A stretch of 63,347 bases of DNA, from assembly GCA_013791785.1 (NCBI GenBank), contig VMTD01000005.1, positions 1 through 63,347 on the forward strand, read 5' to 3'. Positions within the stretch are counted from its first letter, which is position 1. Every line of letters begins with the position of its first letter. The notes under the pieces are model-generated. The model searched no databases, had not been told where the DNA came from, and worked only from the letters and a program-made list of their open reading frames with translations. The position numbers and the translations under genes were made by a program. Source of the DNA: Methanobacteriota archaeon (GTDB taxonomy: Archaea > Thermoplasmatota > Thermoplasmata > SG8-5). This document shows positions 1 through 27,822 of this stretch, piece by piece.

Positions 1-142
1 AATCGGCTCTCAAGGACAAAAATACTTCGTTTTTCATTTTTCACTTATCACTATTCACTTCAGCCAGTCAATAAGTCCGTAAATCTACAATCGAAAATCT
101 AAAATCTACAATCGTTATTGCTTCATTTCACTGAATACTTAC
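1..142 (+). mobile_element. MITE-A copy 1, cut by the window edge. Holds an inverted AGTGAAN-heptad arm (1-58), ATCTACA/ATCTAAA heptads, and a right terminal inverted repeat ending TTTCACTGAATACTTAC at 142.
   Basis: Bases 12-58 are the reverse complement of 34520-34566 with 1 mismatch. Bases 62-142 match the right halves of the copies at 23078-23218 and 54892-55166. Confidence 0.7.
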
Positions 143-3724: not shown

Positions 3725-4870
3725 TCAGCGCAGTGCTTCCCTTGCGATGACCATACGTTGAACTTCGCTGGTTCCCTCGTAAATCTCGGTTATCTTTGCC
3801 TCGCGATAGAAACGTTCCACGGCGTAATCCTTGGTGTATCCGTAGCCGCCGTGTATCTGAACGGCGTCGTTCGTCACTTCCCTGGCAATCCTGGAAGCGT
3901 ATAATTTGGCCATGGCGCTTTCCTTGGTGAAATTCTTCCCGGAGTCCTTCAGCCAGGCTGCCCTGTGTACCAGGAACCGCGCCGCAGAGACTTTGGTGGC
4001 CATCTCGGCCAACATCCACTGTATGGCCTGGAATTTGCCGATGGGGCGGCCGAACTGTTCTCTCTCCTTGGCGTATTTCACGGCCTCGTTCAGTGCGCCC
4101 TGGGCTATGCCAACGGCCTGTGCGGCGATACCCATTCTGCTGGCATCCAGCGTCGCCATTCCTAAATTGAAACCCCTGCCTTCTTCACCCAGCAAGTTTT
4201 CCTTTGAAATTCTGCAATTCTCAAAAACCAATTCCGTGGTGGCCGAGGCCCTTACTCCCATTTTATCCTCAATGGACCCGTAAGTGAAACCGGGGGTTCC
4301 TTTTTCCACAATTAATGCACTGAGTCCCTTTGTGCCCTTGGAGAGATCGGTGGATACTATCACAACAAGGATGTCAGCCTCCGAGCCAGAGGTGATGAAA
4401 ATCTTGTTGCCATTCAGTACATATTCATCTCCATTAAGAACGGCCGATGTCCTCACAGCACCTGCATCCGAACCAGCCCCCGGTTCGGTGAGGGCAAAAC
4501 CGCCCAGCTTCTGGCCTTTGGCCAGTGGGCGTAGAAATTGCTCTTTCTGGGCATCAGTGCCAAATTTATATATTGGGTAGCAACAGACTGAATTATGAAC
4601 CGCCATGATAACGCTGGTGGAACCGCAAACTTTGGCAATCTCCTCGATGGCCATCATGTAGGAGATGTCATCTATACCCGCGCCGCTCCATTCCTGCGGG
4701 ACGGTCATGCCCATGAGGTTGAGCGAGCCCATCTTGCGAATTATCTCCCAGGGGAACTCACCGCTGGCATCCAGTTCCTGGGCTACGGGTTTAATTTCCT
4801 TCTCGGCAAAGGCCCTGACCATGTTGCGGACCATGAGCTGTTCCTTGGTGTGGTCGAAGTTCATCGACAT
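3725..4870 (-). CDS. Acyl-CoA dehydrogenase (short/medium-chain type)
   Basis: GGFALTEPGAGSD and C-terminal YEGTSEVQRMVIAR motifs, about 380 aa. The first ATG is at 4870 (the ORF-track start at 4879 is TTG); the ATG at 4864 is also possible. Confidence 0.9.
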   Translation of the reverse strand: MSMNFDHTKEQLMVRNMVRAFAEKEIKPVAQELDASGEFPWEIIRKMGSLNLMGMTVPQEWSGAGIDDISYMMAIEEIAKVCGSTSVIMAVHNSVCCYPIYKFGTDAQKEQFLRPLAKGQKLGGFALTEPGAGSDAGAVRTSAVLNGDEYVLNGNKIFITSGSEADILVVIVSTDLSKGTKGLSALIVEKGTPGFTYGSIEDKMGVRASATTELVFENCRISKENLLGEEGRGFNLGMATLDASRMGIAAQAVGIAQGALNEAVKYAKEREQFGRPIGKFQAIQWMLAEMATKVSAARFLVHRAAWLKDSGKNFTKESAMAKLYASRIAREVTNDAVQIHGGYGYTKDYAVERFYREAKITEIYEGTSEVQRMVIAREALR

Positions 4871-4899: not shown

Positions 4900-4908
4900 C
4901 ATCGAAAG

Positions 4909-5085
4909 GTAAGAGTTCAGTCTTCTGAAATTTTAGATTTTAGATTTTAGATATTTGCAGGAATACGCCCATCCGTATTTTAGATTTTAGATTTTAGATA
5001 TTTGCAGGAATATGCAACGCCGTCAATCCGTCGTAAATCTACAATCGTCAATCTACAATCTACAATCGTTTCGCTGAATGCTCAC
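4909..5085 (+). mobile_element. MITE-A copy 2, with a perfect 8-bp target-site duplication ATCGAAAG (4901-4908 and 5086-5093)
   Basis: Left end GTAAGAGTTCAGTC, right end CGCTGAATGCTCAC (imperfect TIR). The interior holds two (TTTTAGA)3 blocks, a duplicated core, and ATCTACA heptads. Confidence 0.85.
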
Positions 5086-5093
5086 ATCGAAAG

Positions 5094-8000
5094 TTAAGGT
5101 TCGCGCCACCTGGCCTTCCACACCACCAGCGCGGAGAATGCGACCACCGTGACAATCAGCACGAGCCAGTGCAGCATGAAGGCCGTGGGGTTCATGACAG
5201 TTTCACCCGCATCGGTCGCATGGCGGATTATGGCCGCGGCATCGGACGTCGGCAGAATATGGTCTATTGCATATTCGGTTCCACGGGTTTCGGATTGGGG
5301 TTCGGCATCCTCGCTCATCAAATCATTGGGTGGCTGCACAGAATTTGACATTGTCCATGTGCAATCCGATGTCACATGCACCCAGTAAGCATTGCCCGGA
5401 GACATGGTCACTGAGGAGAGATCGCTGAAGTCCTGTATCCACGGGGATGTTGATTGATACACTGACACCATATCCGCACTTGTGCCTTGAAGAGCATCCA
5501 AGGCCAGCTCCGGCAATATGGACGGATACCCCACCATATTCCATCCTGTGTATAGTTGAATCTGCACTTCCTCAGTTGGGTAGTAGCCCATGATGCCGGT
5601 GGTCAACATCTTGTCCCCGCCATTGGCAGTGAGCTTAATCCAAACGCCCATCTGGTTGTCGATGGTAAAGAGGGTGTTGGTTGTGCTGCCATGCCTGTAG
5701 GTCTTCCAGGTCTTGGTTACGCCATCATACCACTTGGCAACGCTCCATGTTGTGTTTCCATCGCCGTAAACCGTGTCGTTCAGTATGTCCTGAATATTGC
5801 CACTGATGGCTATGGGAAAAGATATGAATGCCCAACTGTCACCTGCGTAACTAGACAGATCGATGAGATAGGGTGCTTCGACAGTCTCTTTTGTGACGGT
5901 TACGGTATCCATTGCAGTGTTGTTGTAAATATCTGAGGCCTCTGCCTCTATGATTACCTCACCGTCCGGTACGGTTGTGCTGTCCCATTGATATACCCAT
6001 TTTCTGAGGAAATGGTCATAAGTTGCCTCTACCGGATCGCCCTTGTTAATGTAAATCCTGACGCCCGTTATGCCACTGGAGTCTCCTGCCTCCACTGTTA
6101 TATTGACCGTTCCACTTACCGTGGAGGAATTTGCTGGATAAGTTATAGAGATAAATGGAGGTAATTGATCAGTGGGTATGGCTATAGCAGTCTTTTCGAT
6201 TGTGTTGTTCTCGTTGCCGCTTTTATCGATGGCAGTGACGGCAAAGTGGTACAGGATATAATTCTCCAGACCGTATATTTCCCAATATGTTGCTCCAGCA
6301 TCGTCCTCGGGAGAGAGGGGATAGTATGTGGCCTCTGCCGTATCGGTGAAATTCCCAGTACTGTAATAAAGTTTGTACCCTGCCAGGTCATTTTCGCTAT
6401 TGGGTAGCCAGGAGACATTCACGATTCCTCCCTGTTGGAGATCGGTCGCCTCGACGTCCTGAACCGGGGCCGGGGGCATTGTATCAACAGTGGTACACCA
6501 CGCTTCTATGGAACTTGGACCCTCGTTGCCTGCAAAATCCATGGCCGTAACAATATAGTAATATGTGGTATCCCTGGTAAGTCCTTGATCCAGGTAGGAG
6601 TTTGTGGTGGCGTTGGCCACGTGCTCATAAGGGCCTCCGGGAACCAGGGCACGATAGACAAGGTACTGGCAAAGGTCAATTTCGATGTTCGCATCCCATA
6701 CGAGGGCAAGGCTCTCTCCCTCAACTCCAGATACCACTTGAAGGCCTGCAACTTGGCCAGGGGATGTTCTGTCTCTGGTGCCGTATATTGTGACATCGTC
6801 AATCCAGAATCCCGTGGAATTTTGTGTCTTGTTTGTGTAAAGGTTGAAAGCCACAATAGCTTCCTTGTGCAGATAGGGAGTGAGATCAATTTCGAATTGC
6901 CACCACCCAGAATAGCTGCCTGTAAGTCCGCCATAATAGTCCCAATTTTCCCCTTCGTCCATGGTTATGCCTATGAATAGGTAGTCACTGGCATATGCGT
7001 GCCCGGTGAGCAGGAACCGGAGCCTGGCTGCCTCCGCGGTCCTTAGGTCGAACGAATGCATGAGATATTCGTCCATGGAGCCGCCGTATTGGCCCGAGAC
7101 GTCGGAGCCGCACCACCAACTGGTGTCGTATGAGTAGTAATCATTGTTCACCTGGTGCCAGTTGGGCTGCACCGGGCTTGTTGTCGTCCAACCGTTCAGG
7201 CCGGATTCCATGTCGTCGAAGAAGAAGATGGAGGCTACCTCTACCTCGTCTATGTACATGCCCTCCCGGGTCATGCTGTAATCGCTATTGAACCAGAAGC
7301 GGATTGTCACAGAGGAGGCACCGCAGAACCCGTCCAGCGAGAGATGGCCGGTGTACCACCATGTTCGCGCCATGATGTCCGGGTCCTCACCGTCATACTG
7401 CCACTCATCATCGCCGTCATTGAGTATCAGAATCGGTGTCCATGCTGTGTCCGTGGAGCGCTTGACTGATACATTGAAAACATCGTAATAATCCTCTGCA
7501 TCCATCCAGTAGATGAAACTGAGGTATGCGTTCGTGTAGCCTGTCAGGTCGACGGTTGTGTCGGCGTAGGTATCCATGTAGTTGTCATAGGACTTTCCGT
7601 AGCCTGTGACCTTTATCTCGTCGATGTACCAGCCCTCCCTGGCGACGCTACCGTCGCTCTCCATGAGGAACATGAGGTATATCTCTGAACCATCGTAGGC
7701 GGAGAGGGATAATGTTTTCGCCTCCCACTTGCAGGCATTCGCATCGTAATCGTTCGGGTCGTAGCCGTTGTCCCTGATTCCCGCATCGGCAGTGTTCCCA
7801 TATGTTGCCAGGGTCGTCCATTCCGGCCCGTCAACCGTGGTTGGAGGAGTTGTGGATACTTTCACATAGGCAAGGTCATAGAAATCCTCCAATGCAAGCC
7901 ATTGCTGGAATGTCAACTCACAGCCAGTGTTGGCTGTGAGATCAAGCGTTGTTATCATGTAGGAACTCATGCTGCTACGATACTGCGGGCCTGTTCCTGT

Positions 8001-9218
8001 CGCCCTCACATCGTCAATGTACCAACCGGGGGCGCCCCCCGAATCGTCAGTCCCGAGGCCGAACCTTATCCCGACATTATTCTTTCCCGCGCATGGGTTC
8101 AGGTTGGCAATTATATTCCTCCACGCAAGATTGTCGTAGCAGTATGCTGCGTAACCGCCCAGAGGATTCCCGTAGCTGGTGCTCAGTGCCGCGTCGTAAT
8201 ACGGTGAAGGGTTGGTCGACGGTGTATTCACATGATACCAGTTCCCGCCGGTCCTGTTCTCGATTATGCCGCCGTCCCAATTGCTCGCCGTTCCCTCGAA
8301 ATCGGTATATTGATAATAATTGAGGGAGAGGGTAGAGTATCCCCGAGCATCTAAAACCGGTAATTTTAGGAATGAATCCTCGCTGTCAGCATAGTTGCCA
8401 GCCAGGTTCGTGCCCCAGCAGTTCGTACCGGAGCGGGGTGCAGGTCCCACTGTAGGGTTGCCGAGGGCCCAGCTGTCAGCGGTCCCGGTGTATATGCCAT
8501 GTGTCCAGCCAGTAGCGCCGGATTCCAGGGCATCTGCGAAGAGCGTGTTCGTTCCGGTTCCGGGACTCGTTCCGGCGACATGGTAGCTGTAGTTGCCGGA
8601 ATATGTCTTGTTGGAGCTTCTGGCCCATGAGGCTGGCACATCGGCAGGGTCTGCGTCGCCAGTCCCCCAGAAATAGCCGATGGGGTATTCAGCGGTGTCG
8701 TAGAATATGGTATGCTGCTGGCCAGCCACCGCCCCGACGCCGGCACAGTAGAGGCTGTAATCCCCGTAACCCGGCCTGTCCGCGGTCGCAGCCCAATAAT
8801 CGTATCCGGAGGCCGAGTTCAGGTCGGCTATGGTCCATCCGTCGGTGCCGGATTCGAAATCATCGTAGAATATGTAGGAATCCTCGGGGGCGCGGGTTGA
8901 GCGTGTTCCTGACATGGATTCACGCTGGGGAATTGGATGTGGCCTGAAACTTATATCTTCCGAAGCAGGATACGCTGCCGAACGCAATCCCGGATTGGTT
9001 TCCTGCTGGACAGAAATCGATGTGGACTCACCAAGTGTTCTGGCATCAGGATTCTGGACGCTTGGAATATATGGTTCACCCGTGACCCCTGAGTCTAAAG
9101 GTGCTGTTTCCAGAGAAGATGATTTTTGCAATGCTGTTGTTGCAGGAAATGCAGCCATTGAAAGCAGGGCTATGACTACAAGTGAGGACATCACTGCAAC
9201 GATAACAGTCTTTCTCAT
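5094..9218 (-). CDS. Giant secreted surface protein (1374 aa): signal peptide, about 5 MAM/jelly-roll-like modules, 2 FN3, an Ig-like domain, a C-terminal beta-rich domain and a TM anchor
   Basis: Start at the ATG for MRKTVIVAVMSSLVVIALL, 10 nt after the upstream stop. Recurrent GWYIDDV / GWYIDEIKV / GMYIDEVEV / GFWIDDVTIYG module ends. FN3 signatures (YLVYRA...TTYYYIVTAMDFAGNEG). The last ~50 aa are almost identical to the ABC-2 permease C-terminus. Confidence 0.85.
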   Translation of the reverse strand: MRKTVIVAVMSSLVVIALLSMAAFPATTALQKSSSLETAPLDSGVTGEPYIPSVQNPDARTLGESTSISVQQETNPGLRSAAYPASEDISFRPHPIPQRESMSGTRSTRAPEDSYIFYDDFESGTDGWTIADLNSASGYDYWAATADRPGYGDYSLYCAGVGAVAGQQHTIFYDTAEYPIGYFWGTGDADPADVPASWARSSNKTYSGNYSYHVAGTSPGTGTNTLFADALESGATGWTHGIYTGTADSWALGNPTVGPAPRSGTNCWGTNLAGNYADSEDSFLKLPVLDARGYSTLSLNYYQYTDFEGTASNWDGGIIENRTGGNWYHVNTPSTNPSPYYDAALSTSYGNPLGGYAAYCYDNLAWRNIIANLNPCAGKNNVGIRFGLGTDDSGGAPGWYIDDVRATGTGPQYRSSMSSYMITTLDLTANTGCELTFQQWLALEDFYDLAYVKVSTTPPTTVDGPEWTTLATYGNTADAGIRDNGYDPNDYDANACKWEAKTLSLSAYDGSEIYLMFLMESDGSVAREGWYIDEIKVTGYGKSYDNYMDTYADTTVDLTGYTNAYLSFIYWMDAEDYYDVFNVSVKRSTDTAWTPILILNDGDDEWQYDGEDPDIMARTWWYTGHLSLDGFCGASSVTIRFWFNSDYSMTREGMYIDEVEVASIFFFDDMESGLNGWTTTSPVQPNWHQVNNDYYSYDTSWWCGSDVSGQYGGSMDEYLMHSFDLRTAEAARLRFLLTGHAYASDYLFIGITMDEGENWDYYGGLTGSYSGWWQFEIDLTPYLHKEAIVAFNLYTNKTQNSTGFWIDDVTIYGTRDRTSPGQVAGLQVVSGVEGESLALVWDANIEIDLCQYLVYRALVPGGPYEHVANATTNSYLDQGLTRDTTYYYIVTAMDFAGNEGPSSIEAWCTTVDTMPPAPVQDVEATDLQQGGIVNVSWLPNSENDLAGYKLYYSTGNFTDTAEATYYPLSPEDDAGATYWEIYGLENYILYHFAVTAIDKSGNENNTIEKTAIAIPTDQLPPFISITYPANSSTVSGTVNITVEAGDSSGITGVRIYINKGDPVEATYDHFLRKWVYQWDSTTVPDGEVIIEAEASDIYNNTAMDTVTVTKETVEAPYLIDLSSYAGDSWAFISFPIAISGNIQDILNDTVYGDGNTTWSVAKWYDGVTKTWKTYRHGSTTNTLFTIDNQMGVWIKLTANGGDKMLTTGIMGYYPTEEVQIQLYTGWNMVGYPSILPELALDALQGTSADMVSVYQSTSPWIQDFSDLSSVTMSPGNAYWVHVTSDCTWTMSNSVQPPNDLMSEDAEPQSETRGTEYAIDHILPTSDAAAIIRHATDAGETVMNPTAFMLHWLVLIVTVVAFSALVVWKARWREP
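5098..5249 (-). repeat. Direct repeat copy 1 of the permease 3' end; partner at 15637-15788
   Basis: Hand alignment gives 141/152 identical, with only 3 mismatches in the first 100 nt. Same orientation, and in frame in both genes. Confidence 0.9.
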
Positions 9219-9228
9219 CCTACCACCA

Positions 9229-12228
9229 TCACAGTGTGTAAGATCCCGGGTAATTGTCAACTTGTTCCGGGTGGGAATCACTGTACTCGCTTGTGTATTT
9301 TGGTGCTGCGATGGAGAATGCCGATTCCATGGTGGTGGAACCCTGGCTCTCTATGGCCCACTTGAGGTACCAGTATGTCCAGGCACCCAGGCCGTACTGG
9401 CTGGCATCATACGTATATTCGTTCCAGCCACAGCCCTGTGCAACGTACCGGCCGCAGTTTGCATCATATCCGCTGCCAGTGTAGCGGTATGCTACCTCGT
9501 CCATGCCTCCGCTCCTGCACTCATCCATGAATACGAAAACCTCCACGCTGGCCAGATTTCTCAGGCGATATGAGAATACATTATCTAGGATGCAACCCGC
9601 ACCGTATCCGCTAGCGTCCCAAGCAAACCATTGGGCCGGGTGGCCGTCTTTCTGACCGTCATATGAAGTGCCGGCACTGGCACTGTATCCGGCCTCGGAT
9701 TGATGGCCTCCGTGCCCGCTGAAAGTGATTACAACCTTTGTGCCAGCCACGGCATTGGCTACGATGTTGTCCACTGCACTGTAAATGGCGGCCTCGCTTG
9801 CCTGGCTGTTAAGAAGACTGGTCACTGCGTACCCCTTGCCCTGGAGATATGTGCCCCATTCCTGGGCGTCTTTGTGAGCATAGGAGAGGTCGTTTATGGT
9901 CTTGTAGTCGGATATGCCAATCACAAGGGCGAGTTTATCGCCTGTAACAACACCGCCATCAGTGCTTGATGCCTTTACCGAAAATGCACCACTACCGCTG
10001 TATGATAGTACCATTATGTGGTAAGTTCCAGCGGAGGGATTGGTGATGGTGACAACCTCGTTGGAGGAGGATGTATAGCCCCTGCCGTCGTAAGTGCTGG
10101 TGGTCGGCTGTGAGCCAAATTTAACGTACAAATCAATGTCGTACCCGCTGCCGGTGTTGTATGTCTCCACCTTGAGGGTGGCCTTGCCTGCGGGTACTGC
10201 CACGGTGAAGTATTTTTTGTCGGCAGTTGCGCTCACGCTGCTGGCAATACCAGAGCCGTCAAGCGTCAGAGTTGAGGAAGAGGATGAGCCGGTGGTTGTG
10301 AAGCTATTGCCCGTGCCAGTTGCCATATTGCCGGCAGCATCGGCCGACTTGACCCTGTAATAATACTTAGTGTTGGCTGCAAGTCCGGTAAGCGGTCGAT
10401 TGTGGCTCGTTACATATGTTGAACCGCTCGCAGTCAAACCGTAACTCGTGGTGGTGCCGTACTCCACAACACTCGTCGCAGCTTCGTTGGTGGTCCACGT
10501 AACCGTGGCACCGGTGTCGGTTATGGATGAAACGGCCATGCTGGAAATGGTCGGAGGTGTTATGTCAGTCGGAGTGCTGGATGTGCTCGTTGCCTTGACG
10601 GAGAACGTACCGCCGCCGCTGTAGGAATAAGCCATGATATAATAGGTGCCGGCAGATGGATTGTTAATGGTTATGACTTCACTGGAGGAAGATGTGTAAC
10701 CCCTGCCGTCATAACTGCTCGAGGTGGGCAACGCACCGAGTTTCACATACAGGTCAAGGTCATATCCGCCGCTGGGGTTGTACGTTTCCACCTTTAGAGT
10801 GGCCTTGCCGGTGGGCACAGCAACACTGAAGTATTTCTTGTCCCCGGTGGCACTGACGCTGCTGGCCGCCCCAGAACCATCAAGTGTAATGGCGATAGGT
10901 CCAGAGGCATCCGCGAGGGTTGTGAAACTGCTGCCCGCGCTGGTTGCCGTGTTACCTGCCGCATCGGTTGATTTCACCCTGTAATAATACTTGGTATTGG
11001 CAGTCAGGCTGGAAAGGGCAACGCTGTGGCTCGTAACACCATTGGTTCCGGTTGCAGTGGAACCATATGAAGTGGTGGTACCATACTCAACGACGGAACT
11101 GCTGGCCTCATTGGTGGTCCATGTTACCATGGCACCGTTGATGGTAATTGAAGAAATTGCAACGCTGGATATGGTCGGAGGAGTGGTGTCTGCCGCGCTC
11201 AGGGTGGTAAAGCTGTTGCCAGTGCTCGTGGCAACATTGTTTGCCAGATCTGCTGATTTGACCCTGTAATAATACTTCGTGTTGGCAGCCAAGCTAGTTA
11301 AGGCAATGCTGTGGCTGGTCTTGAGCGTCGTACTACTGGCAGTTGTCCCGTAACTCGTGGTGGTGCCATATTCTACGATGCTGGTCGCAGGTTCATTGGT
11401 TGTCCATGTTATAGTAGCGCCGCTTGATGTTATTGAAGTGACCGCCAGACCCGATATGGTGGGAGGCGTGGCGTCAACACCGGCGAGAGTGGCCTTGACC
11501 CTGGCATTTCCGCTGCCGCTATATGAATTTACCATTATGTAATATGTACCAGAGGCAGGGCTGCTGAGCACAACCTTTTCATTTGAAGAGGATGTATAGC
11601 CTCTGCCGTCATAGGTGCTGGTGGTCGGAAGCGCGCCAAGCTTGACATAGAGGTCAAAGTCACCCGGGCTTGCAGGTCCCTCGGAGTCTATGGTGAGAGA
11701 CAAGCCACCAGATGGTATGGCTATCGAGAAATATTTCTTGTCGCCAGTGGCACTTAGTGACTGGTAAGAGGACCAGGTGCCGGAGTAATTCGGAACCGTC
11801 ACTACAGAGGTTCCACCCGCCGCGGTGGCCTTGAATGTGTAAGATCCGCTGCCGCTGTAAGAGTTCGCCATAACATAGTACGTTCCGGATACTGGATTGG
11901 TGAGGGTTATGGTTTCGGAAGCAGAGTTGGTATAACCGCGCGCATCGTAACTGCTGGTCGTCGGATAGGCCCCTCTTTTTATGTAGAGGTCGAAATCATA
12001 TCCGGTTCCCGTATTGTATGTTTGAGTGGTAAGCGAGGTATAGCCCGTTCCCAGGGTGAAGTAGAAGTAATCTTTCTGTCCAGACGCGCTGAGGCTGCTG
12101 TTCACCGGTACATCCAGGCTCACCTGCTGATTTACTCCATCAGCCAGTGATAAACCTGCTGTCGCCAGAATGCTGACGCCAAATACTACACACACTAACA
12201 AAATCCATACATTGCTTTTCCACATCAT
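9229..12228 (-). CDS. Secreted clan-CD (caspase/legumain-like) cysteine peptidase with an N-terminal array of PPC (pre-peptidase C-terminal-like) and FN3 domains
   Basis: Signal peptide MMWKSNVWILLVCVVFGVSILA with GGAGG upstream. Four PPC-like units (DxDLYVK...GTYYIMV.SYSGSG). Three FN3 units (PPTIS...YGTTTSYG...NTKYYYRVKS.D.AGN). C-terminal LALVIGISDY...ITFSGHGG...FMDECRSGG supplies the His/Cys dyad motifs. Confidence 0.85.
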   Translation of the reverse strand: MMWKSNVWILLVCVVFGVSILATAGLSLADGVNQQVSLDVPVNSSLSASGQKDYFYFTLGTGYTSLTTQTYNTGTGYDFDLYIKRGAYPTTSSYDARGYTNSASETITLTNPVSGTYYVMANSYSGSGSYTFKATAAGGTSVVTVPNYSGTWSSYQSLSATGDKKYFSIAIPSGGLSLTIDSEGPASPGDFDLYVKLGALPTTSTYDGRGYTSSSNEKVVLSSPASGTYYIMVNSYSGSGNARVKATLAGVDATPPTISGLAVTSITSSGATITWTTNEPATSIVEYGTTTSYGTTASSTTLKTSHSIALTSLAANTKYYYRVKSADLANNVATSTGNSFTTLSAADTTPPTISSVAISSITINGAMVTWTTNEASSSVVEYGTTTSYGSTATGTNGVTSHSVALSSLTANTKYYYRVKSTDAAGNTATSAGSSFTTLADASGPIAITLDGSGAASSVSATGDKKYFSVAVPTGKATLKVETYNPSGGYDLDLYVKLGALPTSSSYDGRGYTSSSSEVITINNPSAGTYYIMAYSYSGGGTFSVKATSTSSTPTDITPPTISSMAVSSITDTGATVTWTTNEAATSVVEYGTTTSYGLTASGSTYVTSHNRPLTGLAANTKYYYRVKSADAAGNMATGTGNSFTTTGSSSSSTLTLDGSGIASSVSATADKKYFTVAVPAGKATLKVETYNTGSGYDIDLYVKFGSQPTTSTYDGRGYTSSSNEVVTITNPSAGTYHIMVLSYSGSGAFSVKASSTDGGVVTGDKLALVIGISDYKTINDLSYAHKDAQEWGTYLQGKGYAVTSLLNSQASEAAIYSAVDNIVANAVAGTKVVITFSGHGGHQSEAGYSASAGTSYDGQKDGHPAQWFAWDASGYGAGCILDNVFSYRLRNLASVEVFVFMDECRSGGMDEVAYRYTGSGYDANCGRYVAQGCGWNEYTYDASQYGLGAWTYWYLKWAIESQGSTTMESAFSIAAPKYTSEYSDSHPEQVDNYPGSYTL

Positions 12229-12396: not shown

Positions 12397-13809
12397 TCAG
12401 TTGCGAGAGTGTTTCTTTCGTTTTGGTTTTTCCTCGTCGTCCTTTCTCTTCCAGAATCTTGATTTTTTCAAGAACCAGAAAACAACACACCCGCCCAGAA
12501 AACCAACAATCACGAAAATCGGTATGATGCCATTATCGATCCTGTCATCATCTTCAATCTTCTCCTGACCTGGCTGAGATAGACTCGTCATCACAATGTC
12601 CCTGTCCGTTCCGTCAGTGAGCAGGGCGCTGGTGGTCTCCCATACTACTATAATTTCTTCATCGACTTGTATCGCGTCGTGTCCGGGCACGACCGTTCCA
12701 CCCGAATCCGCAGAATCCTTCCCCTCGGACACCACCAGAACGCTCCCGAGGGTTGTCCCGTTAATCTCGGCCACAGCTATGTCCCAACCATCTCCGCCTG
12801 TAATGGAGGGATCAGAACTTTGCCATGACAACCAGACACTGCTTTTGAACGGAAAAAGTAACGGATATACGTCATCGCCGGTGTCATGGGAAGATGACAG
12901 CGCATGAGTGCTCCAGGTACCGTTGTACATTGCCAATCCTATGTCCATGTCATCCCCCGGACCGACTGACTTGTCCTTTGACTGCCAGGCTATGTACAAA
13001 CAATTGTTCAGAGTGAGCATGCTCGGGTACATGTCGTCCTCGGTGTCTGCCGTGTCCGAAAGCTGCACTATCTCATCTAGAGAATGGTTCTGGAGGTGGA
13101 AGGACGCTGCCACGATGTCCATATCCATGCTGTTCGTGTATGCATTGTCGCCGCTGCTCCACGCAATCCAAAGTTTATCATCCAGGAAAACGGCAGAGGG
13201 GTTCAGGTTCATGCCCTTCCAGTCCTTGGTGACCACAAGGGCCTCTGAAGGAACAGAATTGTAAGTGGCCAGCAGGATGTGTCCCTCTACCCCCTCGATT
13301 GAATGCCAGAGGACAATGACGCCATTCTGGTACGGCACCAGACATGGCGCATAATCGTTTGCAGTGTCATTGGATACCGTGAGCTCTATAGGGGTGTTCC
13401 ACCCTGTTTCAGGATAATAAATTGATAGAGCAATGTCCCAATCTAATCCTGATGTGTACTGTGAATTATCCGTTGCCCATGCAGCATAAATCAGACCACC
13501 CGAAGCGCAGAGTGCCAAGTCTCTCTCGTTGCCAGTGCCCTCCACCAACTTTTCCACTCCAGACCACGTGCCCTGGTAGCGCACATTGTACCTTATGTTG
13601 ACATTGGAACCTTCGGATGCAAGCCAGGCTACCACAAGGGCGCCGCCGGTTTCGGCAATACTGGGCGATCTGTCGATTCGGGAATCTCCAGCCTCGGTAA
13701 TCTCTGTGGTGTAGAACGCATTCACACCGGATAACAGGTTGATGGAGATTAAAAAGAGTACAAGAAACAGTGTGATGATGGTGACTTTCCCTGTCCTGCA
13801 TGCCGTCAT
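12397..13809 (-). CDS. Membrane-anchored beta-propeller-like repeat protein (about 7 repeats of W-x-S/T...D-x-D-I)
   Basis: The start ATG overlaps the upstream stop (ATGA) and gives signal/TM MTACRTGKVTIITLFLVLFLISI. Repeats include IAWSSGDNAYTNSMDMDIV, IAWQSKDKSVGPGDDMDIG and LSWQSSDPSITGGDGWDIA. C-terminal TM plus a K/R-rich tail. Confidence 0.75.
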   Translation of the reverse strand: MTACRTGKVTIITLFLVLFLISINLLSGVNAFYTTEITEAGDSRIDRSPSIAETGGALVVAWLASEGSNVNIRYNVRYQGTWSGVEKLVEGTGNERDLALCASGGLIYAAWATDNSQYTSGLDWDIALSIYYPETGWNTPIELTVSNDTANDYAPCLVPYQNGVIVLWHSIEGVEGHILLATYNSVPSEALVVTKDWKGMNLNPSAVFLDDKLWIAWSSGDNAYTNSMDMDIVAASFHLQNHSLDEIVQLSDTADTEDDMYPSMLTLNNCLYIAWQSKDKSVGPGDDMDIGLAMYNGTWSTHALSSSHDTGDDVYPLLFPFKSSVWLSWQSSDPSITGGDGWDIAVAEINGTTLGSVLVVSEGKDSADSGGTVVPGHDAIQVDEEIIVVWETTSALLTDGTDRDIVMTSLSQPGQEKIEDDDRIDNGIIPIFVIVGFLGGCVVFWFLKKSRFWKRKDDEEKPKRKKHSRN

Positions 13810-15590
13810 TCGCTCTTCCTCCGGGCGATGAATTTGGTGATGAACATCATTACCAGAACGGAGAGCAGAATTCCAAGCCCCAGGGACAACAGCATTTGAC
13901 CCATGGTCCAATTGGAACCGGCTTCTTCCTCGTTCAGCGAAGAATCATCGCCAGTGGTGTTATCATCAGCAATAACATTGTTTTCTTGAATGGGGATGGT
14001 GACCTCGGCAGTGGCTATGTTGTTCCATGGTTCCAAGTCCTCCGAACAGTTGGCCACGACAACCAAAGTGTGGTGACCTGATTGGGGATACCAAAAGAAG
14101 GAATGGAAATAGAACTGGTCAGTGTTGATGGTAAAATTAGTGGAGTTCAAGAGCACACCGTTGGAAGGGAGGCCCTGGAATACTTCCAAATGGACATCGC
14201 CCGAAGCCTCTCCTCTATTGTACAGGACAATGGTGACCTCCACCTTGGAAACATTCACCCAGCTGAACGCTATCCCATTCTGAATTATCAAGACATCAGG
14301 ATATACGGGGAGAATCGTAAGAATGGCCGATGAATTGGCAGCGAGTCGTTTCTCATTAATGAAAACCGTGAAATCATATTCTCCCGGTTCGGTTGGAGTC
14401 GTGATGTTAAAGTGAGCTTCGCCCATGTCATTTGTGGTGGACAGATATTCTACTCCTTCAAGAACAAGAACAGCCTCCTGACCGAATACATTGGACCCGT
14501 CCTCGTACACGGCACTACATTTTATGGATAGTTCCCTTCCGGGTTTGCTGGTCACATTTTCAACCGTCACTTTGATGCTCGAGTAGTAAATGTCGCGTCT
14601 GTACCACTCGGTTTCAGCCATGTTGCCTGATAAATCCAGCGCACGCACCTTCAAAAGTACGAACGTGCCACCCGGAAACGGCCCCACGTCCCCAAGAAAG
14701 CCGTCCTTCGTTTCATTCATTGACAGTTCCTCTTCGTCCGCATCACCTACTGAAAAAATCAGCGTGACTGGTTTGTCCTTAGCTAGTCCCAGGTCATCCT
14801 CTACTAATGCCAATACACTCACAATATCCTCGCTTGTTGGCTCCTTCAGGGATATCTGAGGTTCGGAAATCACCGGGGGGAATGTGTCTTGTATCTCGAT
14901 AGTGTTGTTAGCCTGATTGTTTGTAATGTTCCTGTCAGAAGGTTCCACCTGGTCTGCCACCACGGTAAACAGATGAATTCCGCTCTCCGCAACCCACAAC
15001 ACCCCAACAATATTGGAACCGTTCGCAGGAACGACGATGCGCTCCGAGAACAACAATTCGCCCTGGAATGGCGTGCCCAAAAATAGTTTCACTGTCGTGT
15101 TGGCATCCAGTTCACCAATGTTTCGAACCGTGGTGTTCACCAAGACCTTGCTACCTGTCTCGAAAGCATCGGACCAGAAGGATATGTCCTCCTCTTGGAC
15201 GCAGATGTCCGGCGCAGGAGGCGGTGGAGCCATCACCGTCAGAAAAAGAATGGAATTGCCTGAATAAATACTCCAAAATGCAGAAACATTAATAGAATAT
15301 TCCCCCAAGGCCAATGGAGCGTTGAAAGACGCGACGAACATCCCCTTGTCATCCGTGGTGGTGTTGACCGTTATATTCGTTTTCTCAACAATAATCTCTA
15401 CTGTCGCGTCGGCAACCAACATATTCTTTGAGTCCTTCACGGTGCCGGTAACCACCGCCTCATCACCAGGGTAGACTGTTTCATCATTCAGTGCGGTTTC
15501 GACCGTCAAGGACGTGGCTAGGACCGGGACGGCACAGATGGAAGATAGCAACAGGATAACTAGTATACCTCTCCACAACGCATGCGCCAT
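13806..15590 (-). CDS. Secreted CARDB / carboxypeptidase-regulatory-like multi-domain protein with a C-terminal TM anchor
   Basis: The first ATG gives signal MAHALWRGILVILLLSSICAVPVLA. Two CARDB-like units (VRNIGELDANTTVKLF..., LYNRGEASGDVHLEVF...). C-terminal TM LLSLGLGILLSVLVMMFI. Confidence 0.8.
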   Translation of the reverse strand: MAHALWRGILVILLLSSICAVPVLATSLTVETALNDETVYPGDEAVVTGTVKDSKNMLVADATVEIIVEKTNITVNTTTDDKGMFVASFNAPLALGEYSINVSAFWSIYSGNSILFLTVMAPPPPAPDICVQEEDISFWSDAFETGSKVLVNTTVRNIGELDANTTVKLFLGTPFQGELLFSERIVVPANGSNIVGVLWVAESGIHLFTVVADQVEPSDRNITNNQANNTIEIQDTFPPVISEPQISLKEPTSEDIVSVLALVEDDLGLAKDKPVTLIFSVGDADEEELSMNETKDGFLGDVGPFPGGTFVLLKVRALDLSGNMAETEWYRRDIYYSSIKVTVENVTSKPGRELSIKCSAVYEDGSNVFGQEAVLVLEGVEYLSTTNDMGEAHFNITTPTEPGEYDFTVFINEKRLAANSSAILTILPVYPDVLIIQNGIAFSWVNVSKVEVTIVLYNRGEASGDVHLEVFQGLPSNGVLLNSTNFTINTDQFYFHSFFWYPQSGHHTLVVVANCSEDLEPWNNIATAEVTIPIQENNVIADDNTTGDDSSLNEEEAGSNWTMGQMLLSLGLGILLSVLVMMFITKFIARRKSE

Positions 15591-15632
15591 GTAACAACAA
15601 AACACCAAGCTTCTATTTAAATTTGCGCCTGC

Positions 15633-16403
15633 TCACGGTTCGCGCCACCTGGCCTTCCACATCACCAGCGCGGAGAATACGACCACCGTGACAATCAGCA
15701 CGAGCCAGTGCAGCATGAAGGCCGTGGGGTCCATGACGGTTTCGCCAGCACCGGTCGCATAGCGGATTATGGCCGCTGCGTTGGACGTGGGAAAGATGTA
15801 GACTATCCATGACAGATTCATTCCGCTCATGTTGGTCAGCATTGCCTCCGAGTAATAGACCGGCGGCAGGAAAACGAATCCGAAGCTGAGTATGTTGGCG
15901 ATGATTCCCAGGGTGTTGGGGCTGGTCTTGTGTTGGTATGTGGCTATGGTGAATCCCATTGCGGCAAGTGCGAGCCAGCAGAGTATCATGGCCCCCAACG
16001 TCACCAGGATTGAAAATGGGTCGAACAGACCCCGGTAAACCCCGTAACACAAGAACGCGATGAATCCCGGGAAGGAAAATATCAGAAATCCGAGAGTGAG
16101 GCCCATGGCATAGGACAGCGGATGAACGGGCATGGCCACCACCATCTCCCTGAGCTTGACATATCTGTCCCAGGTGATGTCCTGTATCGACGCGGTAATG
16201 GCTATGAATCCGATGCTGGATACTATAACACCCACAAGGCCCACGTCCATCATTTCCGCCCCGCCGAAGAGTGTGATGAAGAACAGCGGTATCGCAGCCA
16301 GTCCCACAAGGATCAGGAGCATGAGTGGCTGCCTTTTGATGTCGGGAATGGATTTCATGTAGGCGATTATCCATGTATCTTTGATTATCTTCCTGATGCT
16401 CAT
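15633..16403 (-). CDS. ABC-2 type transporter permease
   Basis: 256 aa with about 6 predicted TM helices. Translationally coupled (ATGA) to the ATPase gene. Confidence 0.85.
   Translation of the reverse strand: MSIRKIIKDTWIIAYMKSIPDIKRQPLMLLILVGLAAIPLFFITLFGGAEMMDVGLVGVIVSSIGFIAITASIQDITWDRYVKLREMVVAMPVHPLSYAMGLTLGFLIFSFPGFIAFLCYGVYRGLFDPFSILVTLGAMILCWLALAAMGFTIATYQHKTSPNTLGIIANILSFGFVFLPPVYYSEAMLTNMSGMNLSWIVYIFPTSNAAAIIRYATGAGETVMDPTAFMLHWLVLIVTVVVFSALVMWKARWREP
15637..15788 (-). repeat. Direct repeat copy 2 (the native permease 3' end); partner at 5098-5249
   Basis: See 5098-5249. Confidence 0.9.
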
Positions 16404-17311
16404 TCCAGCTCACCTCCGGCAAGTCTGACGAACGCATCCTCCAGCGTTACGGGCGCTGCCTCGGCTTGAACGCCCCTCTTCAGCATGTCACGGACTAGTT
16501 CTATTGCATCATCGTCGCTCTTCAGATAGACCACCAGGCGGTCGCCTATCTTTGTGACCTCAGGATACTTGGATTGGTCTATTTCCCCTTCCGGGGCGAT
16601 TACCCTGTACCTGTAAGGGACCTGTTTCTTTATCTCGGCGGTGGTGCCGACTATCACAAGTTCGCCCTTGTTGATTATGGCCAAACGGTCGGAAACCATT
16701 TCAGCCTCGTCCATCATGTGCGTCGTCAAAATGATTGTATTGCCCTTGGCTGCCCTGTCCCGGAGGGTGGACCATACGTTCCTTCGGCCGATGGCATCCA
16801 GGCCGCTTGTCGGTTCGTCCAGCATCATTATGGGTGCGTCGCTGGCCAGTGTCGCCGCGATTAGCGCTCGGCGCTTCTCGCCGCCGGACATGGATTGGCA
16901 TGGCTTTAAACGCATATCCCACATGAGCATGGCTCTCAGCGCCTCCTCGGCGTTCTTCTTGGCCTTGGCCTTGTCCATTCCCCTGAGCAGACAGAAATTG
17001 TAGGCATAGTCCCACGGGGTGAAATTCGCATAGGCCATCGCGTCCTGCGGGACCATGGCAATCTTTTCCCGTATCGCATTCGGTTCATTCACCACGCTGT
17101 ATCCCAGGATGTGCGCGTCCCCGGAAGTGGGCATGAGTTGGGTGCACAGTATCCTGAGAAAGGTGGTCTTACCGGCGCCGTTCGGTCCGAGTATGGTGAA
17201 CACCTCGCCCTTGTTGACTGTGAGGTTCATATCCTTGAGTGCCTGGGTCTTCTTCTCATATGTCTTCGAGATTCCTTTCGCAACTATTGCGGGTTCGTGA
17301 ATTTGATTCAT
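16400..17311 (-). CDS. ABC transporter ATP-binding protein (ABC-2/DrrA-like)
   Basis: Walker A GPNGAGKTT, signature MSGGEKRR, Walker B IMMLDEPTSGLD. Confidence 0.93.
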   Translation of the reverse strand: MNQIHEPAIVAKGISKTYEKKTQALKDMNLTVNKGEVFTILGPNGAGKTTFLRILCTQLMPTSGDAHILGYSVVNEPNAIREKIAMVPQDAMAYANFTPWDYAYNFCLLRGMDKAKAKKNAEEALRAMLMWDMRLKPCQSMSGGEKRRALIAATLASDAPIMMLDEPTSGLDAIGRRNVWSTLRDRAAKGNTIILTTHMMDEAEMVSDRLAIINKGELVIVGTTAEIKKQVPYRYRVIAPEGEIDQSKYPEVTKIGDRLVVYLKSDDDAIELVRDMLKRGVQAEAAPVTLEDAFVRLAGGELE

Positions 17312-20240: not shown

Positions 20241-20377
20241 GTAAACATTCAGCGAAACAATAACGATTGTAGATTTAGGGATTGTAGATTGTAGATTTAC
20301 GACGAACGGGCATCCTGCCAGCAAAAATCTAAAATCTAAGTTCTAAAATCTAAAATCTCAGAAGACCTACCTCTTAC
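20241..20377 (-). mobile_element. MITE-A copy 3 (reverse orientation)
   Basis: GTAAACATTCAGCG...GATTGTAGATT heptads...core...AATCTAAAATCT heptads...CAGAAGACCTACCTCTTAC. No clear target-site duplication. Confidence 0.75.
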
Positions 20378-22653: not shown

Positions 22654-22708
22654 GAGAAAGCCCAGCCCTGGTAACAAACGCCAGCCACTTTAGGGGCTGG
22701 TAGTTTAC
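22654..22708. repeat. Hairpin element B, copy 2 (left terminus degenerate)
   Basis: CCCAGCCCTGGTAACAAACGCCAGCCACTTTAGGGGCTGGTAGTTTAC. The terminal GTTTAC holds the TAA stop of the 22705-23022 gene. Confidence 0.6.
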
Positions 22709-23077: not shown

Positions 23078-23218
23078 GTAAGAGTTCAGTCTTCTGAAAT
23101 TTTAGATTTTAGATTTTAGATATTTGCAGGAATATGCAACGCCGTCAATCCGTCGTAAATCTACAATCGTCAATCTACAATCTACAATCGTTATTGCTCC
23201 ATTTCACTGAATACTTAC
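23078..23218 (+). mobile_element. MITE-A copy 4 (canonical, 141 bp), with a 7/8 target-site duplication CCTTGCCT / CCTTGTCT
   Basis: TIRs GTAAGAGTTCAGT / ACTGAATACTTAC. Interior (TTTTAGA)3, core, ATCTACA heptads. The right TIR holds the nitroreductase TAA stop. Confidence 0.85.
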
Positions 23219-23739: not shown

Positions 23740-23995
23740 GGGGGTGGATTGGCGTCGAAAGAATAAATGTTTGCCCTGAACGGTAAACCTGAGATTATGG
23801 TGGTATCGACTTGAAATGCTCATCACTCCCCACCCTTTCTCCATCTCCTTCACATCCCCCGGCAACCCAACCAACGGAATCATGATTACCTCCACTCCAA
23901 CCCGTGAATAATCCTCTTCGTATAAATTGAGTTCACGGAGGAACCAAAAGCATGAAATACAACGAACCCATTCATTAACAATAGGGGGAACTCCC

Positions 23996-26900
23996 ATGAT
24001 AGCCAATAAATTGAAATGCATAGGATTTGCAATGTTATTAATGACCGGAACACTGGCAGGTTTGACAGTGTTTTCACAGACGGCCTCGGCTGGCGTCAGC
24101 GGAAACATCTCCGTCGACACAACCTGGAGCGGAACTGTCTACATCGAAGGAAATGTGATTGTTGACCCAGGAGTCACACTCACCATTGACCCTGGAACAG
24201 AAGTTCGTTTCAATGGTTATTACTATCTGAATGTGAACGGATATTTATACGCAAACGGAACTCCATCAAATAGAATAGTTTTCAGATCGAATTCATCAAC
24301 TCCTGGATTAATGGACTGGAGTGTGATCGATACGGGGATAGGTACAGGGATAAAAACAGAATACAGATATTGCGATTTCAGCCACTTCGCGAATTCGATA
24401 AGAACCTCCAGAAATGTTGGAGATTTGTTTGATAATTGCACCGCGTCCAATGCTTTCGGTAATGTTTGGGTGAGAGCAGATTGGACCAACATTACCAACT
24501 GTATCTTTAATCCGATTAGTGGTGTATCGATAGAATCAGATTATAATCACATAGATAATCTCACCATGCTGGACAATCAGATGTATATGTCCTATGCCAA
24601 TAACAACATCATTTCTAATTTAAATCACTCTGGAATTCTGCAACTAACAATAGACAATTCAGACAATAACCGCTTTATTAATGGCTTTGCCAAGAATGGC
24701 ATTAAATTTGAAGTCAATTCAGATAACAACACAGTTGAGAATTATGAAATTTGGAACTGGCTGGAGGCATATAACTGTGGGCATAATGCTAACAACACGG
24801 TAAAGAATTCCACAATATTTGCCACAGCGCTTCTGAATCAATCATCCTCGATGTCAATAATCAATTCCTCCAATGGTGGTGGAAACTACCAGGATTTGAC
24901 TTCAGAACTATGGATTAATTGGTATATGCATGTGAATGTAACATATTCCACTGGTCTTCCCGCCGTAGGCGTATCCGTCACAGTGAATGACACGCTTGGA
25001 AGAACGGTCAAAGTCGGGACAACAGATGCCAGCGGGATACTCAGGGATATCGAATGCATTCATTACCGAGGTAATGACACAAATGGAGACCAAGATGACA
25101 ACGATATGTCTGAGAAGATATATTTTACACCACATAACGTAACTGTCGAGAAAGCAGGTATAAAAGGCTACGCTGATGTTACAATGGACGCGACCAAAAC
25201 AGTGAACATAGTCCTGGTGGACGATTCAGCCCCATCTGCGGATTCTTATGCGCCAACTGGTGTTTCCGCACCTTTGGATTCCGATGTCTTCATCCAGTGG
25301 AACGACACCATGAACTGGACCACCGTTGAAAATTCATTTGAATTCACGGACGTTACAACCACCTGGGATTCAACTGATGGAACATGGAACCACGATAATA
25401 TGGCCCAGACATCTACCTTCTCACCGACAGTTCCATTTGATTTTGATACTCAATACTGGGTTGGAATCAACATAACGGCCACAGATGCCGCAGGAAACCC
25501 GCTGGACCAAGATAAGGATGGCACTGGCGGAGAGTGGCCGGATGACGTTCTCATCTGGACATTCACCACATCTGCAAATGCCGTACCGATCATAACTATA
25601 AGCAACCCAGGCGGAGCATCCGACTGGACCGGCGCCACCCCCCACCCAATCTGGTGGAACTGCACCGACACCGAGGATACGGCGACTGACAGCCTGACAA
25701 TCTTCCTCAACTACACCTCCAGCGACGGCTCGGGCGCCGTTGCGGGCCCGTTGCTGAACGGAACAGCCAGGCCTTACATGTGGGTGCTTCCGGCGATAGA
25801 TGCGTCAGATGTGGTGGTCCACGCAACCGTTATTGACTCCAACGGGGCGAAAGGCTATTTCGACACCCCGGCTTTCACCATAGATTCCACGCAACCCCAG
25901 GTTACAGGCGTTTCTCCTACACCATTTTCAGTGGGAATCTCCCCTGCTACTGTCGTGACCATTACCTTTGACGAGCCAATGAACCAGGCAGAAACAGAAG
26001 CGGCATTCACCCTGGAGAATTTCACATCCACGGTTGCAGGAACGTTCGGCTGGAATGCCCAAAGCACGCAAATGACCTTCACCCCAGCACAAAGCCTGGA
26101 CTTGAACACTGTTTACTGGGTCAACACTACGACCGTGGCGGAGGATGATTCGGAGCCCGGAAATGCACTGGCAACTTCAAATTCTTCGGTTTTCACTACA
26201 TTGGTAACTGTTGATTCCACCGGGCCGGCAGTCACCGTTGGGCCGGAGATCGAGCCCGCCATTGTCTACGTCGATGGAATTCACGACACAACCATCTGGA
26301 TAAACGCGACAATAGATGATTTCAACCTGGGCAACAGCACCATTGCCGCGGCCGAACTGATTATTGGGGACGAGCACCCGCCCACAATTCAGGATGGTAC
26401 CGGCATTCCGATGGAAGCCGTTGATGGGACTTTCGATGAAATGAATGAAACCGTTACCATCGACCAGAATGGCTTTTTGAGCCTGCCTGCTATGACACTG
26501 TATTATTGGGTCCACGGGCAGGATTCGGAAGACAACTGGGGAGAATGGAAGCTCGTTACCTTGGAATTGATTGACAGCGAGCCACCGGAGATTACCACCT
26601 ATGTGCCCACGGGAACAAATGTCAACCCCAATTCTTCGGTTCTTTTCTCATTTGATGAAGTAATGAATCACACATCTGTTCAAGATTCCCTATCTGTGAG
26701 TCCGTATTTGGATGGTGCGGGTGGATTTTTCTTCAATACTGGCAGTTATCAAGACTACAATTTTAGTATGGCAAATAACTTTCATCAAAACATCACTTAT
26801 ACTATTACGATAAATTCAAGCATCGCAAAAGATACTGCCGGAAACTTCCTGGATGGGAACGAGAACGGCATTGCCGAGGGCTCTCCGACTGATGATTTTT

Positions 26901-27705: not shown

Positions 27706-27718
27706 AAAGAAAGAAAAA
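27706..27718 (-). terminator. Oligo-T tract directly after the tRNA 3' end
   Basis: The minus strand reads TTTTTCTTTCTTT right after the discriminator base. Confidence 0.5.
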
Positions 27719-27792: not shown

Positions 27793-27822
27793 ATTAAATC
27801 TGATACTGCCAATAAGATATTG

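Follow-up and report, generated by a model that had tools for sequence, protein, structure and literature searches.

How did the 3' end of an ABC-2 permease gene come to serve also as the 3' end of an unrelated gene that encodes a giant surface protein and lies 10.5 kb away? This question is raised by a 63,347-nucleotide (nt) stretch of DNA from a Thermoplasmata archaeon of the SG8-5 lineage (contig VMTD01000005.1 of the assembly GCA_013791785.1, positions 1 to 63,347; hereinafter, the window), where the two genes end with nearly identical sequences of 171 base pairs (bp). The permease gene and the gene for the 1374-amino acid (aa) giant protein are the outer members of a compact arrangement: downstream of the permease, there are four genes for secreted proteins, denoted here A, B, C and G, the last of which encodes the giant protein, and G is followed by the gene for an acyl-CoA dehydrogenase (ACAD). 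The 171-bp repeat is very likely the scar of one insertion event with a long target duplication. The A-B-C-G surface-protein operon would have been inserted where the permease gene has its 3' end, ahead of ACAD, with the last 171 nt of the permease open reading frame (ORF) duplicated on both sides of the insert.

Both copies of the repeat are in frame and on the minus strand, like all genes of the region. The first copy (15636–15806) comprises the last 57 codons (I200 to P256) of the permease gene (15633–16403, minus strand), which encodes an intact ABC-2 (type V) permease of 256 aa and starts within the stop codon region of the upstream ATPase gene, the two overlapping. These codons encode a predicted external helix, a loop, the predicted last transmembrane (TM) helix, TM6, and the terminal KARWREP, and are followed by the stop codon TGA (15633–15635). 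The second copy (5097–5267), delineated from alignments, comprises the last 57 codons of gene G (5094–9218, minus strand; MAM-like, fn3 and Big_7 domains), which ends with TAA (5094–5096); this gene is thus a chimera in which the last 57 residues are permease-derived. The copies align without gaps, with 152 of the 171 nt, spanning 57 shared codons, being identical; MAFFT and a repeat finder report a two-copy direct repeat at 5098–5267 and 15637–15806 (89% identity over 170 nt, no gaps). The homology ends at the respective stop codons, and the copies bracket exactly the four genes A, B, C and G. Within the 63-kb window, to which this count applies, the repeat has two copies only, and chance is not an issue because it is the only long repeat there apart from a family of elements resembling miniature inverted-repeat transposable elements (MITEs) and the internal domain repeats of gene C. 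An earlier note on this DNA gave 141 of 152 identical positions between 5098–5249 and 15637–15788; the alignment returns the same count (11 mismatches), with both copies in frame, and the C-termini of the two proteins are exactly as quoted there. The duplication described in that note is therefore real, but the interval 5098–5249, given there as the primary coordinates, is the copy in the giant gene, and the permease 3' end is located at 15637–15788.

All this evidence comes from metagenome assemblies of one population, so that an assembly artefact, in which the giant gene was chimerically joined to a permease-like set of reads, has to be weighed. Such an artefact is extremely improbable: the identical junction is present in several separate assemblies from NCBI and the European Nucleotide Archive (ENA), with the exact 1374-aa fusion protein encoded on 6 contigs and the region represented in at least 4 assemblies, and the downstream flank of the fusion is the genuine ancestral flank of the permease gene, as shown below. 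Collapse or mis-joining of loci is also unlikely because the copies differ at 19 sites and have at most 51 identical nt in a row. The conspecific assemblies are 100% identical in DNA over the region, so they sample one population rather than independent strains. Two of the conspecific contigs, JAHIHF010000212.1 (L003, GCA_018899975.1) and JAHIGL010000241.1 (L004/L066, GCA_018900055.1), end close to the repeat or to the adjacent MITE-like element: one of them stops ~370 nt before the stop codon of the giant gene and the other ~80 nt after it, inside the MITE. These ends suggest that the repeat and the MITE break short-read assemblies.

The site without the cassette is found in four related lineages. 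In the loci L061, L059, L016 and L015, which encode permeases 84, 82, 77 and 76% identical to that of the window, respectively, the permease gene is followed after ~30–90 nt by ACAD; there is no cassette, and each locus contains a single copy of the tail. The ACAD gene of the window (3725–4864, minus strand), located on the far side of the cassette, is 80% identical to the ACAD gene directly 3' of the permease in these loci, that is, it is the ancestral downstream neighbor of the permease. The next gene after ACAD is MetRS in L059 and L015, and the next gene of the window (o220) is also present in L015; the contigs of L061 and L016 terminate within or just after ACAD. The search for a deletion allele in related genomes suggested in the earlier note thus yielded precisely the arrangement predicted there, with the permease directly followed by the 5093-side flank, and the cassette is accordingly an insertion relative to the state of these four lineages. 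Other relatives have a different gene downstream of the permease (Pro_CA, MFS or HDAC), and the cassette is likewise absent. Upstream, the window is syntenic with L008 from 23022 down to 15636, through h106, SNO, PcrB, UbiA, IF5A, arginase, a 224-aa gene, the ATPase and the permease, and this synteny stops exactly at the permease stop codon.

The cassette itself has another home. In L005–L007, the A-B-C-G cassette lies between MobB and the MCM-DUF424-NMD3 genes; the contigs of L062–L064 start inside the cassette, with the C-G part again followed by MCM-DUF424-NMD3. In these MCM-side cassettes, which represent two lineages, the giant protein has its native anchor, and no ABC transporter is encoded nearby. 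None of the genes that flank the cassette on the MCM side is present within the window. Flanking repeats and signs of mobile elements were looked for around the MCM-side cassette of L005, and none were found; nor do the orthologous cassettes carry a permease fragment. Three of the relevant loci, namely, L059 (ERZ27315067), with the empty site and the 82% identical permease, and L005 (ERZ27315072) and L007 (ERZ27315071), with the MCM-side cassette and the native anchor, come from neighboring ENA accessions. The respective assemblies may derive from the same organism, and if so, the ancestral configuration would be present in a single genome.

The permease gene, the donor of the tail, is paired with an ABC transporter ATPase gene (16400–17311, minus strand; Pfam ABC_tran, E = 6e-30), and this pair is conserved in all relatives examined. 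We collected 330 homologs of the permease, the close ones originating from metagenome-assembled genomes of Thermoplasmata and Methanomassiliicoccales. The match to the Pfam family ABC2_membrane_3 scores 21.7 bits, under the curated cut-off of 31.6. An AlphaFold2 model (pLDDT of 79, pTM of 0.81) contains helices at residues 205–217 and 226–250, and a Foldseek search with this model retrieves NosY, Wzm, KpsM and ABCG2 at TM-scores of 0.6–0.68. As modeled, the permease is a six-helix ABC-2 fold encoded next to its ABC ATPase, with 205–217 corresponding to the predicted external helix between TM5 and TM6 and 226–250 to the last helix, TM6.

The recipient, in contrast to its orthologs, has lost the native end. 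The closest orthologs of the giant protein (P0123, 71% identical over the full length; P0124, 72%; P0125, 65%) align with it up to ...SETRGT, and then continue for ~55 residues to unrelated anchors, such as LQLVPLLIGMLYIVIRKLRQ. Given that the C-terminus of these orthologs is an ordinary TM anchor of a different kind, the permease tail must have replaced it specifically in this lineage. An exhaustive phmmer search of 1.84 billion representative proteins with the 67-residue tail of the giant protein detected two proteins only, of 249 and 230 aa, that is, of approximately the permease length, one of which was already among the permease homologs; no other long protein with a permease-like tail was found among these representatives. 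(A word-indexed search with the same 67-aa tail returned one candidate, missed the window's own proteins and was superseded by phmmer.) The giant protein starts with the signal sequence MRKTVIVAVMSSLVVIALLSMAA and, near the C-terminus, has the segment MLHWLVLIVTVVAFSALVV (mean Kyte-Doolittle hydropathy of 2.5) followed by WKARWREP. An N-terminal signal, a single C-terminal hydrophobic helix of ~20 residues and trailing basic residues are the hallmarks of a type I anchor; the same architecture of signal peptide, C-terminal helix and basic residues is seen in proteins A and B and in four other large surface proteins of the window. The tail is thus predicted, from these sequence features, to function as a type I membrane anchor replacing the lost native one, a role that its topology would suit because TM6 of the permease runs from the outside to the inside. 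The notion that the permease 3' end was duplicated and reused as the C-terminal anchor of the giant protein, put forward in the earlier note, agrees with the different TM anchors of the 65–72% identical orthologs, the anchoring itself being a prediction.

The two copies of the repeat are each other's closest relatives, and both contain a 6-nt insertion (AGETVM) that most relatives lack; therefore, the duplication arose within this lineage. A derivation of the more diverged 5' half of the giant tail from the permease of another lineage was considered and rejected because this half, too, is closest to the window's permease and shares its unique 6-nt insertion. The mismatches between the copies are clustered, with 16 in the 78 nt of the 5' half versus 3 in the 93 nt of the 3' half (Fisher p = 4e-4), that is, 79% versus 97% identity. 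The synonymous divergence (dS) between the copies, estimated by the Nei-Gojobori method, is 0.72 for the 5' half but 0.04 for the 3' half, both rough values derived from small counts. The low-dS stretch that encodes TM6 corresponds to 5097–5190 and 15636–15729, in copies 10.5 kb apart. Given that the permease dS between the window and the nearest sampled relatives is 0.90–0.93 (0.9–1.4 for the empty-site genomes), the simplest reading is that the duplication is old, somewhat younger than the split from these relatives, and that gene conversion probably homogenized the TM6-coding half of the repeat later. The 97% identity of that half covers synonymous sites, which argues for gene conversion as opposed to selection at the protein level. 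When polarized with the relatives as outgroups, the changes in the giant copy are V→D, Y→H, N208→D, Y215→H and, probably, G→D; those in the permease copy are N→D, A→V and, probably, V→M. Residues N208 and Y215 are invariant among the 13 aligned permeases, and both are altered in the giant copy while TM6 is kept. Thus, constraint on the external-helix motif appears to have been relaxed once it became part of the giant protein, while the helix predicted to do the anchoring is retained.

These patterns also bear on the possibility that the tail is no scar but a shared functional module, for example, a sorting or docking signal for the ABC-2 transporter, maintained by selection. TM6 is the best-conserved part of the copies, and the frame has stayed open over a long time, judging by the 5'-half dS of ~0.7, as would be expected of such a module. 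However, the orthologs of the giant protein lack the tail, as does every other long protein among the 1.84 billion representatives; the other surface proteins of the window use unrelated anchors, and the cassettes of the relatives are not located beside a transporter. Furthermore, the giant copy has lost the two residues that are invariant in the permease alignment, and the 97% nucleotide identity of the TM6 half includes synonymous sites, pointing to gene conversion. Altogether, a selected module appears highly unlikely. As a speculation, with little chance of being correct, the tail, which consists of the external helix and TM6 of a transporter that acts as a dimer and has a TM6 half almost identical in nucleotides to that of the permease, might be more than a passive anchor and might pack against, or exchange with, the dimeric ABC-2 permease, tethering the giant protein and the peptidase operon to it, or else, the repeats might act as a switch that allows the 10-kb operon to be shed and regained.

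At the left junction of the insert (15613–15632, minus strand), aligned with L005 and L006, the permease TGA is followed by GCAG (4 nt) and then by GCGCAAATTTAAATAG (15613–15628). In L005 and L006, where the cassette sits elsewhere, gene A is preceded by a conserved counterpart of the latter sequence, and the conserved TATA-like motif suggests that it is an archaeal promoter of gene A with BRE/TATA-like elements. Because GCGCAAATTTAAATAG starts 4 nt past the permease stop codon and is conserved upstream of gene A, the insert starts within a few nt of this stop codon and brought in its own predicted promoter. At the right junction, the giant ORF departs from its orthologs after ...GAA TAT and reads ATA GAC CAT ATT CTG CCG ACG TCC, where the permease has ATA GTC TAC ATC TTT CCC ACG TCC. 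The native linker of the relatives' giant proteins (I-A-D-R-P-D-S) is patchily similar to the permease (I-V-Y-I-F-P-T-S) at the join, which makes this junction compatible with a microhomology-mediated joining. Between the stop codon of the giant gene and the ACAD promoter, there is a 176-bp MITE-like element (4909–5084), flanked by a 9-bp target-site duplication (TSD), CATCGAAAG, at 4900–4908 and 5085–5093, and bounded by terminal inverted repeats (TIRs), GTAAGAGTTCAG...CTGAATGCTCAC. With this element and one TSD copy taken out, the remaining spacer can be aligned with the sequence that separates the permease from ACAD in L015 and L016, and the alignment extends over the TATA-like motif and the start of ACAD, ATGAACTTCGACC. 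The giant copy of the repeat thus sits where the permease gene ended ancestrally, and the other copy is continuous with the body of the permease gene; this is the layout produced by an insertion that duplicates 171 bp of its target.

The course of events proposed here would then be as follows. The operon landed at the permease 3' end, the upstream copy of the duplicated 171 nt leaving the permease complete and the downstream copy staying joined to the ancestral permease-ACAD spacer. The giant gene would have been broken in its C-terminal linker, with the loss of ~55 native codons (the linker and the TM anchor), and joined in frame to the downstream copy. The giant protein would now end with the permease external helix, TM6 and the cytoplasmic KARWREP before the stop codon, and this tail would serve as an ordinary type I anchor, similar to the anchors of other large surface proteins encoded in this genome. 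The insert would have come with its own promoter, now 4 nt past the permease stop, and the TM6-coding half would have been homogenized afterwards by gene conversion. Joining, whether illegitimate or mediated by microhomology, or else template switching during replication, is the probable mechanism; the data agree with a replicative template switch as well as with illegitimate joining at a staggered break, and the direction of the event is derived by parsimony.

The same end product could be reached in two steps, if the cassette first landed intact downstream of the permease and the 3' end of the giant gene was replaced later by a copy of the permease tail, through a tandem duplication extending from the permease tail to the giant linker with deletion of the distal copy, through ectopic conversion, or through a template switch. 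The patchy similarity between the native linker (I-A-D-R-P-D-S) and the permease could guide an ectopic join, and conversion between the copies seems to occur in any case. Nevertheless, this scheme requires at least two rare events with exact end points. Against it also stand the direct continuity of the distal copy with the ancestral permease-ACAD spacer and the location of the proximal stop codon 4 nt from the predicted cassette promoter; furthermore, neither the native anchor nor a second cassette copy has left a remnant, and no intermediate genome was found. We regard the two-step origin as distinctly unlikely.

In the earlier note, the repeats were described as the pattern expected after a Campbell-type integration of a circular cassette carrying a fragment of the permease gene. 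Under this model, a circle that already had a copy of the permease 3' end would have undergone homologous or site-specific recombination with the permease gene in the chromosome. A single crossover would give the observed structure, with direct repeats of the target 3' end around the insert and an intact target, and the near-identical 93-nt stretch of the repeat could resemble a crossover core. However, repeats of the target 3' end do not discriminate between this model and a long target duplication, being common to both. Under the Campbell scenario, the circle would already need to contain the fusion of the giant gene with the tail, so that the origin of the fusion is left unexplained. Moreover, Pfam searches detect no domain of an integrase, transposase, recombinase or other mobility protein in the cassette, and a scan of 20 large ORFs from other parts of the window revealed none either; in the relatives, the orthologous cassettes reside in the chromosome, have housekeeping flanks, and lack both flanking repeats and a permease fragment; a single crossover between diverged copies yields no identity gradient; and no circular or excised form was found among the contigs. 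The only tRNA gene of the window (27718–27793) is 12 kb away, and integration targeted to a tRNA gene was likewise rejected on account of this location. Hence, Campbell-type integration is an unlikely alternative to an insertion accompanied by long target duplication.

The earlier note also proposed that the repeats support precise excision of the cassette. A cassette-free junction is predicted to read permease body, tail, stop codon, CTTTCGATG, and a circular junction, giant linker, tail, stop codon, GCAG, GCGCAAATTTAAATAG. Neither an excised nor a deleted form was found: all 7 contigs with the exact permease and all 6 with the exact giant protein, which come from one population, carry the cassette. 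Precise deletion via the repeats is possible in principle, but ongoing excision finds no support in the conspecific contigs, each of which retains the cassette, and the 5'-half dS of ~0.7 implies long coexistence of the copies. Comparison of the composition of the cassette with its flanks, also suggested in that note, gave no indication of a foreign origin, which was therefore rejected: the G+C content at third codon positions is 0.57–0.60 in the cassette, compared with 0.51–0.56 in the window's other surface-protein genes and 0.62–0.73 in the housekeeping genes, and the tetranucleotide distance of the cassette is 0.18 versus 0.17 for the other surface-protein genes, so that in both measures, the cassette resembles these genes.

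Several observations weigh against the single insertion accompanied by long target duplication or limit its resolution. The empty-site genomes are fairly distant (permease dS of 0.9–1.4) and represent related species rather than strains, and for this reason, parsimony is the basis for the direction of the event. Genomes of the same or a nearly identical species that lack the cassette were not found: a scan of metagenomes of the Joint Genome Institute with the permease revealed nothing closer than 78% identity, no conspecific contig and no deletion allele, and in a scan of GTDB genomes, the best match was 80% identical, with the window's own species not among the matches. In the part of this genome beyond the window, the site between MobB and MCM may be either empty, indicating translocation, or occupied by a second copy, indicating duplication or transfer. 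The uneven divergence of the copies is not predicted by a single duplication and needs a second process, such as gene conversion. Finally, at the right junction, the relatives are too diverged for proof of a microhomology join.

The insert of 10.4 kb consists of genes for surface proteins. Gene A (13806–15590, minus strand) encodes a 594-aa protein that has a signal peptide and a C-terminal TM anchor and contains Ig-like and CarboxypepD_reg domains (the L005 ortholog is 55% identical), and gene B (12397–13809, minus strand), a 470-aa protein with no Pfam match, also with a signal peptide and a C-terminal TM anchor (ortholog 62% identical). Gene C (9229–12228, minus strand) encodes a 999-aa protein that has a signal peptide but no anchor (ortholog 75% identical). 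The domains identified by Pfam in A, C and G are exclusively of the surface-protein and peptidase kinds, with none in B beyond its signal peptide and TM anchor. The gene C protein contains four PPC domains, three domains resembling fn3 and the purple acid phosphatase N-terminal domain, and a C-terminal caspase-like (C14) peptidase domain; the internal DNA repeats of this gene are spaced by 285 to 900 nt. Unlike its operon partners, this protein lacks a membrane anchor, and 75% identity is kept in the relatives. Elsewhere in the window, the four further large surface proteins, of 1224, 1450, 1622 and 681 aa, are encoded at 23927–27601, 40885–45237, 45324–50192 and 50282–52327, respectively; they contain Big_5, beta-helix/NosD, PKD and fn3 domains, and each has a signal peptide and a C-terminal TM anchor.

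The MITE-like element next to the giant gene belongs to an intergenic family with at least 8 copies or fragments in the window (1–142, 4909–5084, 20265–20377, 23078–23218, 32047–32163, 34466–34716, 35371–35477 and 54971–55166) that displays TIRs, TSDs and multiple copies, the features by which MITEs are defined. The TIRs are GTAAGAGTTCAG(T)...(A)CTGAATACTTAC, and the interior consists of heptamer arrays (TTTTAGA repeated 3–4 times on one side and TCTACAA 3 times on the other) around a core. TSDs of 8–9 bp were identified at three copies: CATCGAAAG (9/9 matching), GGCTGTAC (8/8) and CCTTGCCT/CCTTGTCT (7/8). The heptamer array has 20 matches in the window, compared with 0 expected by chance. Two copies are 100% identical over 94 nt (4977–5070 and 23099–23192), and within the copy at 4909, a 47-bp segment is duplicated in tandem. 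A cognate transposase was not seen in the window. Only the conspecific loci contain the heptamer-array motif, which is absent from the loci of the relatives. Mobilization of the block between the copies at 4909 and 23078 by these MITEs was considered and rejected because the block is syntenic in relatives that lack the MITE motif. The family resembles known MITEs in that the elements are 141–251 bp long and have TIRs, 8–9-bp TSDs and many copies; this likeness covers the element at 4909–5084 only and does not extend to the 171-bp repeat. A second family of short repeats, CCAGCCCTGG.AACAAACGCCAGCCACTTTAGGGGCTGGTAGTTTAC, is represented at 22662–22708 and 53647–53693 (direct) and at 36816–36870 (inverted), with 87–98% identity and hairpin potential; it has no match in Rfam.

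Insertion with long target duplication, the class to which we assign this locus, has been defined from comparisons of bacterial genomes (Nobusato et al. 2000, Gene 259:99; Furuta, Abe & Kobayashi 2010, PMC2853133). The direct repeats are 46–423 bp long, well above the size of the target duplications made by transposons, and are represented by a single copy in the empty-site genome, and mobility genes are lacking (PMC2853133; see also PMC3457768). In many cases, a stop or start codon lies within the repeat, which allows the target gene to survive, and one gene fusion has been recorded; the blocks are smaller than 20 kb, no homology borne by the element is needed, and the class was found through restriction-modification genes, with no archaeal case passing the screen (PMC2853133). 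The molecular mechanism of these insertions is unsettled. The locus described here has direct repeats longer than 30 bp, empty sites with a single copy in related species, and an insert smaller than 20 kb without a mobility gene, and, like the bacterial cases, combines these features with a surviving target and a fusion. It differs in the host, a member of the Thermoplasmata, in the cargo, a surface-protein operon, and in the replacement of a membrane anchor; furthermore, the repeats are old and mosaic, with the 79 and 97% identical halves. Thus, this is a well-resolved archaeal case of a known class of rearrangement that created a chimeric gene and not a new kind of system. A poorly understood class, documented mainly around bacterial restriction-modification genes, is thereby extended to an archaeon and to a cargo unrelated to restriction-modification. 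On the practical side, the tail of the giant protein might lead to false "ABC-2 permease" domain calls in annotation, and assemblies might break at the repeat.

Integrative elements that target gene 3' ends, such as tRNA-targeting islands, share with this locus the repeats of the target 3' end, the intact target and the displaced partial copy at the far end. Among such elements are the prophages e14 and phage 21 at icd in E. coli, which insert themselves at the 3' end of this gene and provide a substitute for it. These elements, however, have an integrase and form circles, and the displaced fragment is dead, whereas the present cassette lacks an integrase and was not seen as a circle, and its displaced copy belongs to the ORF of another protein.

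As in other prokaryotic gene fusions and domain captures, an existing coding segment, here for the predicted external helix and TM6, is reused in frame by an unrelated protein. The difference lies in that this case allows reconstruction of the two parents, the two junctions and the ancestral state of each locus, and in that what was captured is part of a polytopic transporter and apparently has become a single-pass anchor; a fragment of this kind thus appears to be reusable in such a capacity. With the parents, the junctions, the empty site and the earlier home of the cassette all available for comparison, the locus is an unusually complete natural example of the formation of a chimeric gene in prokaryotes.

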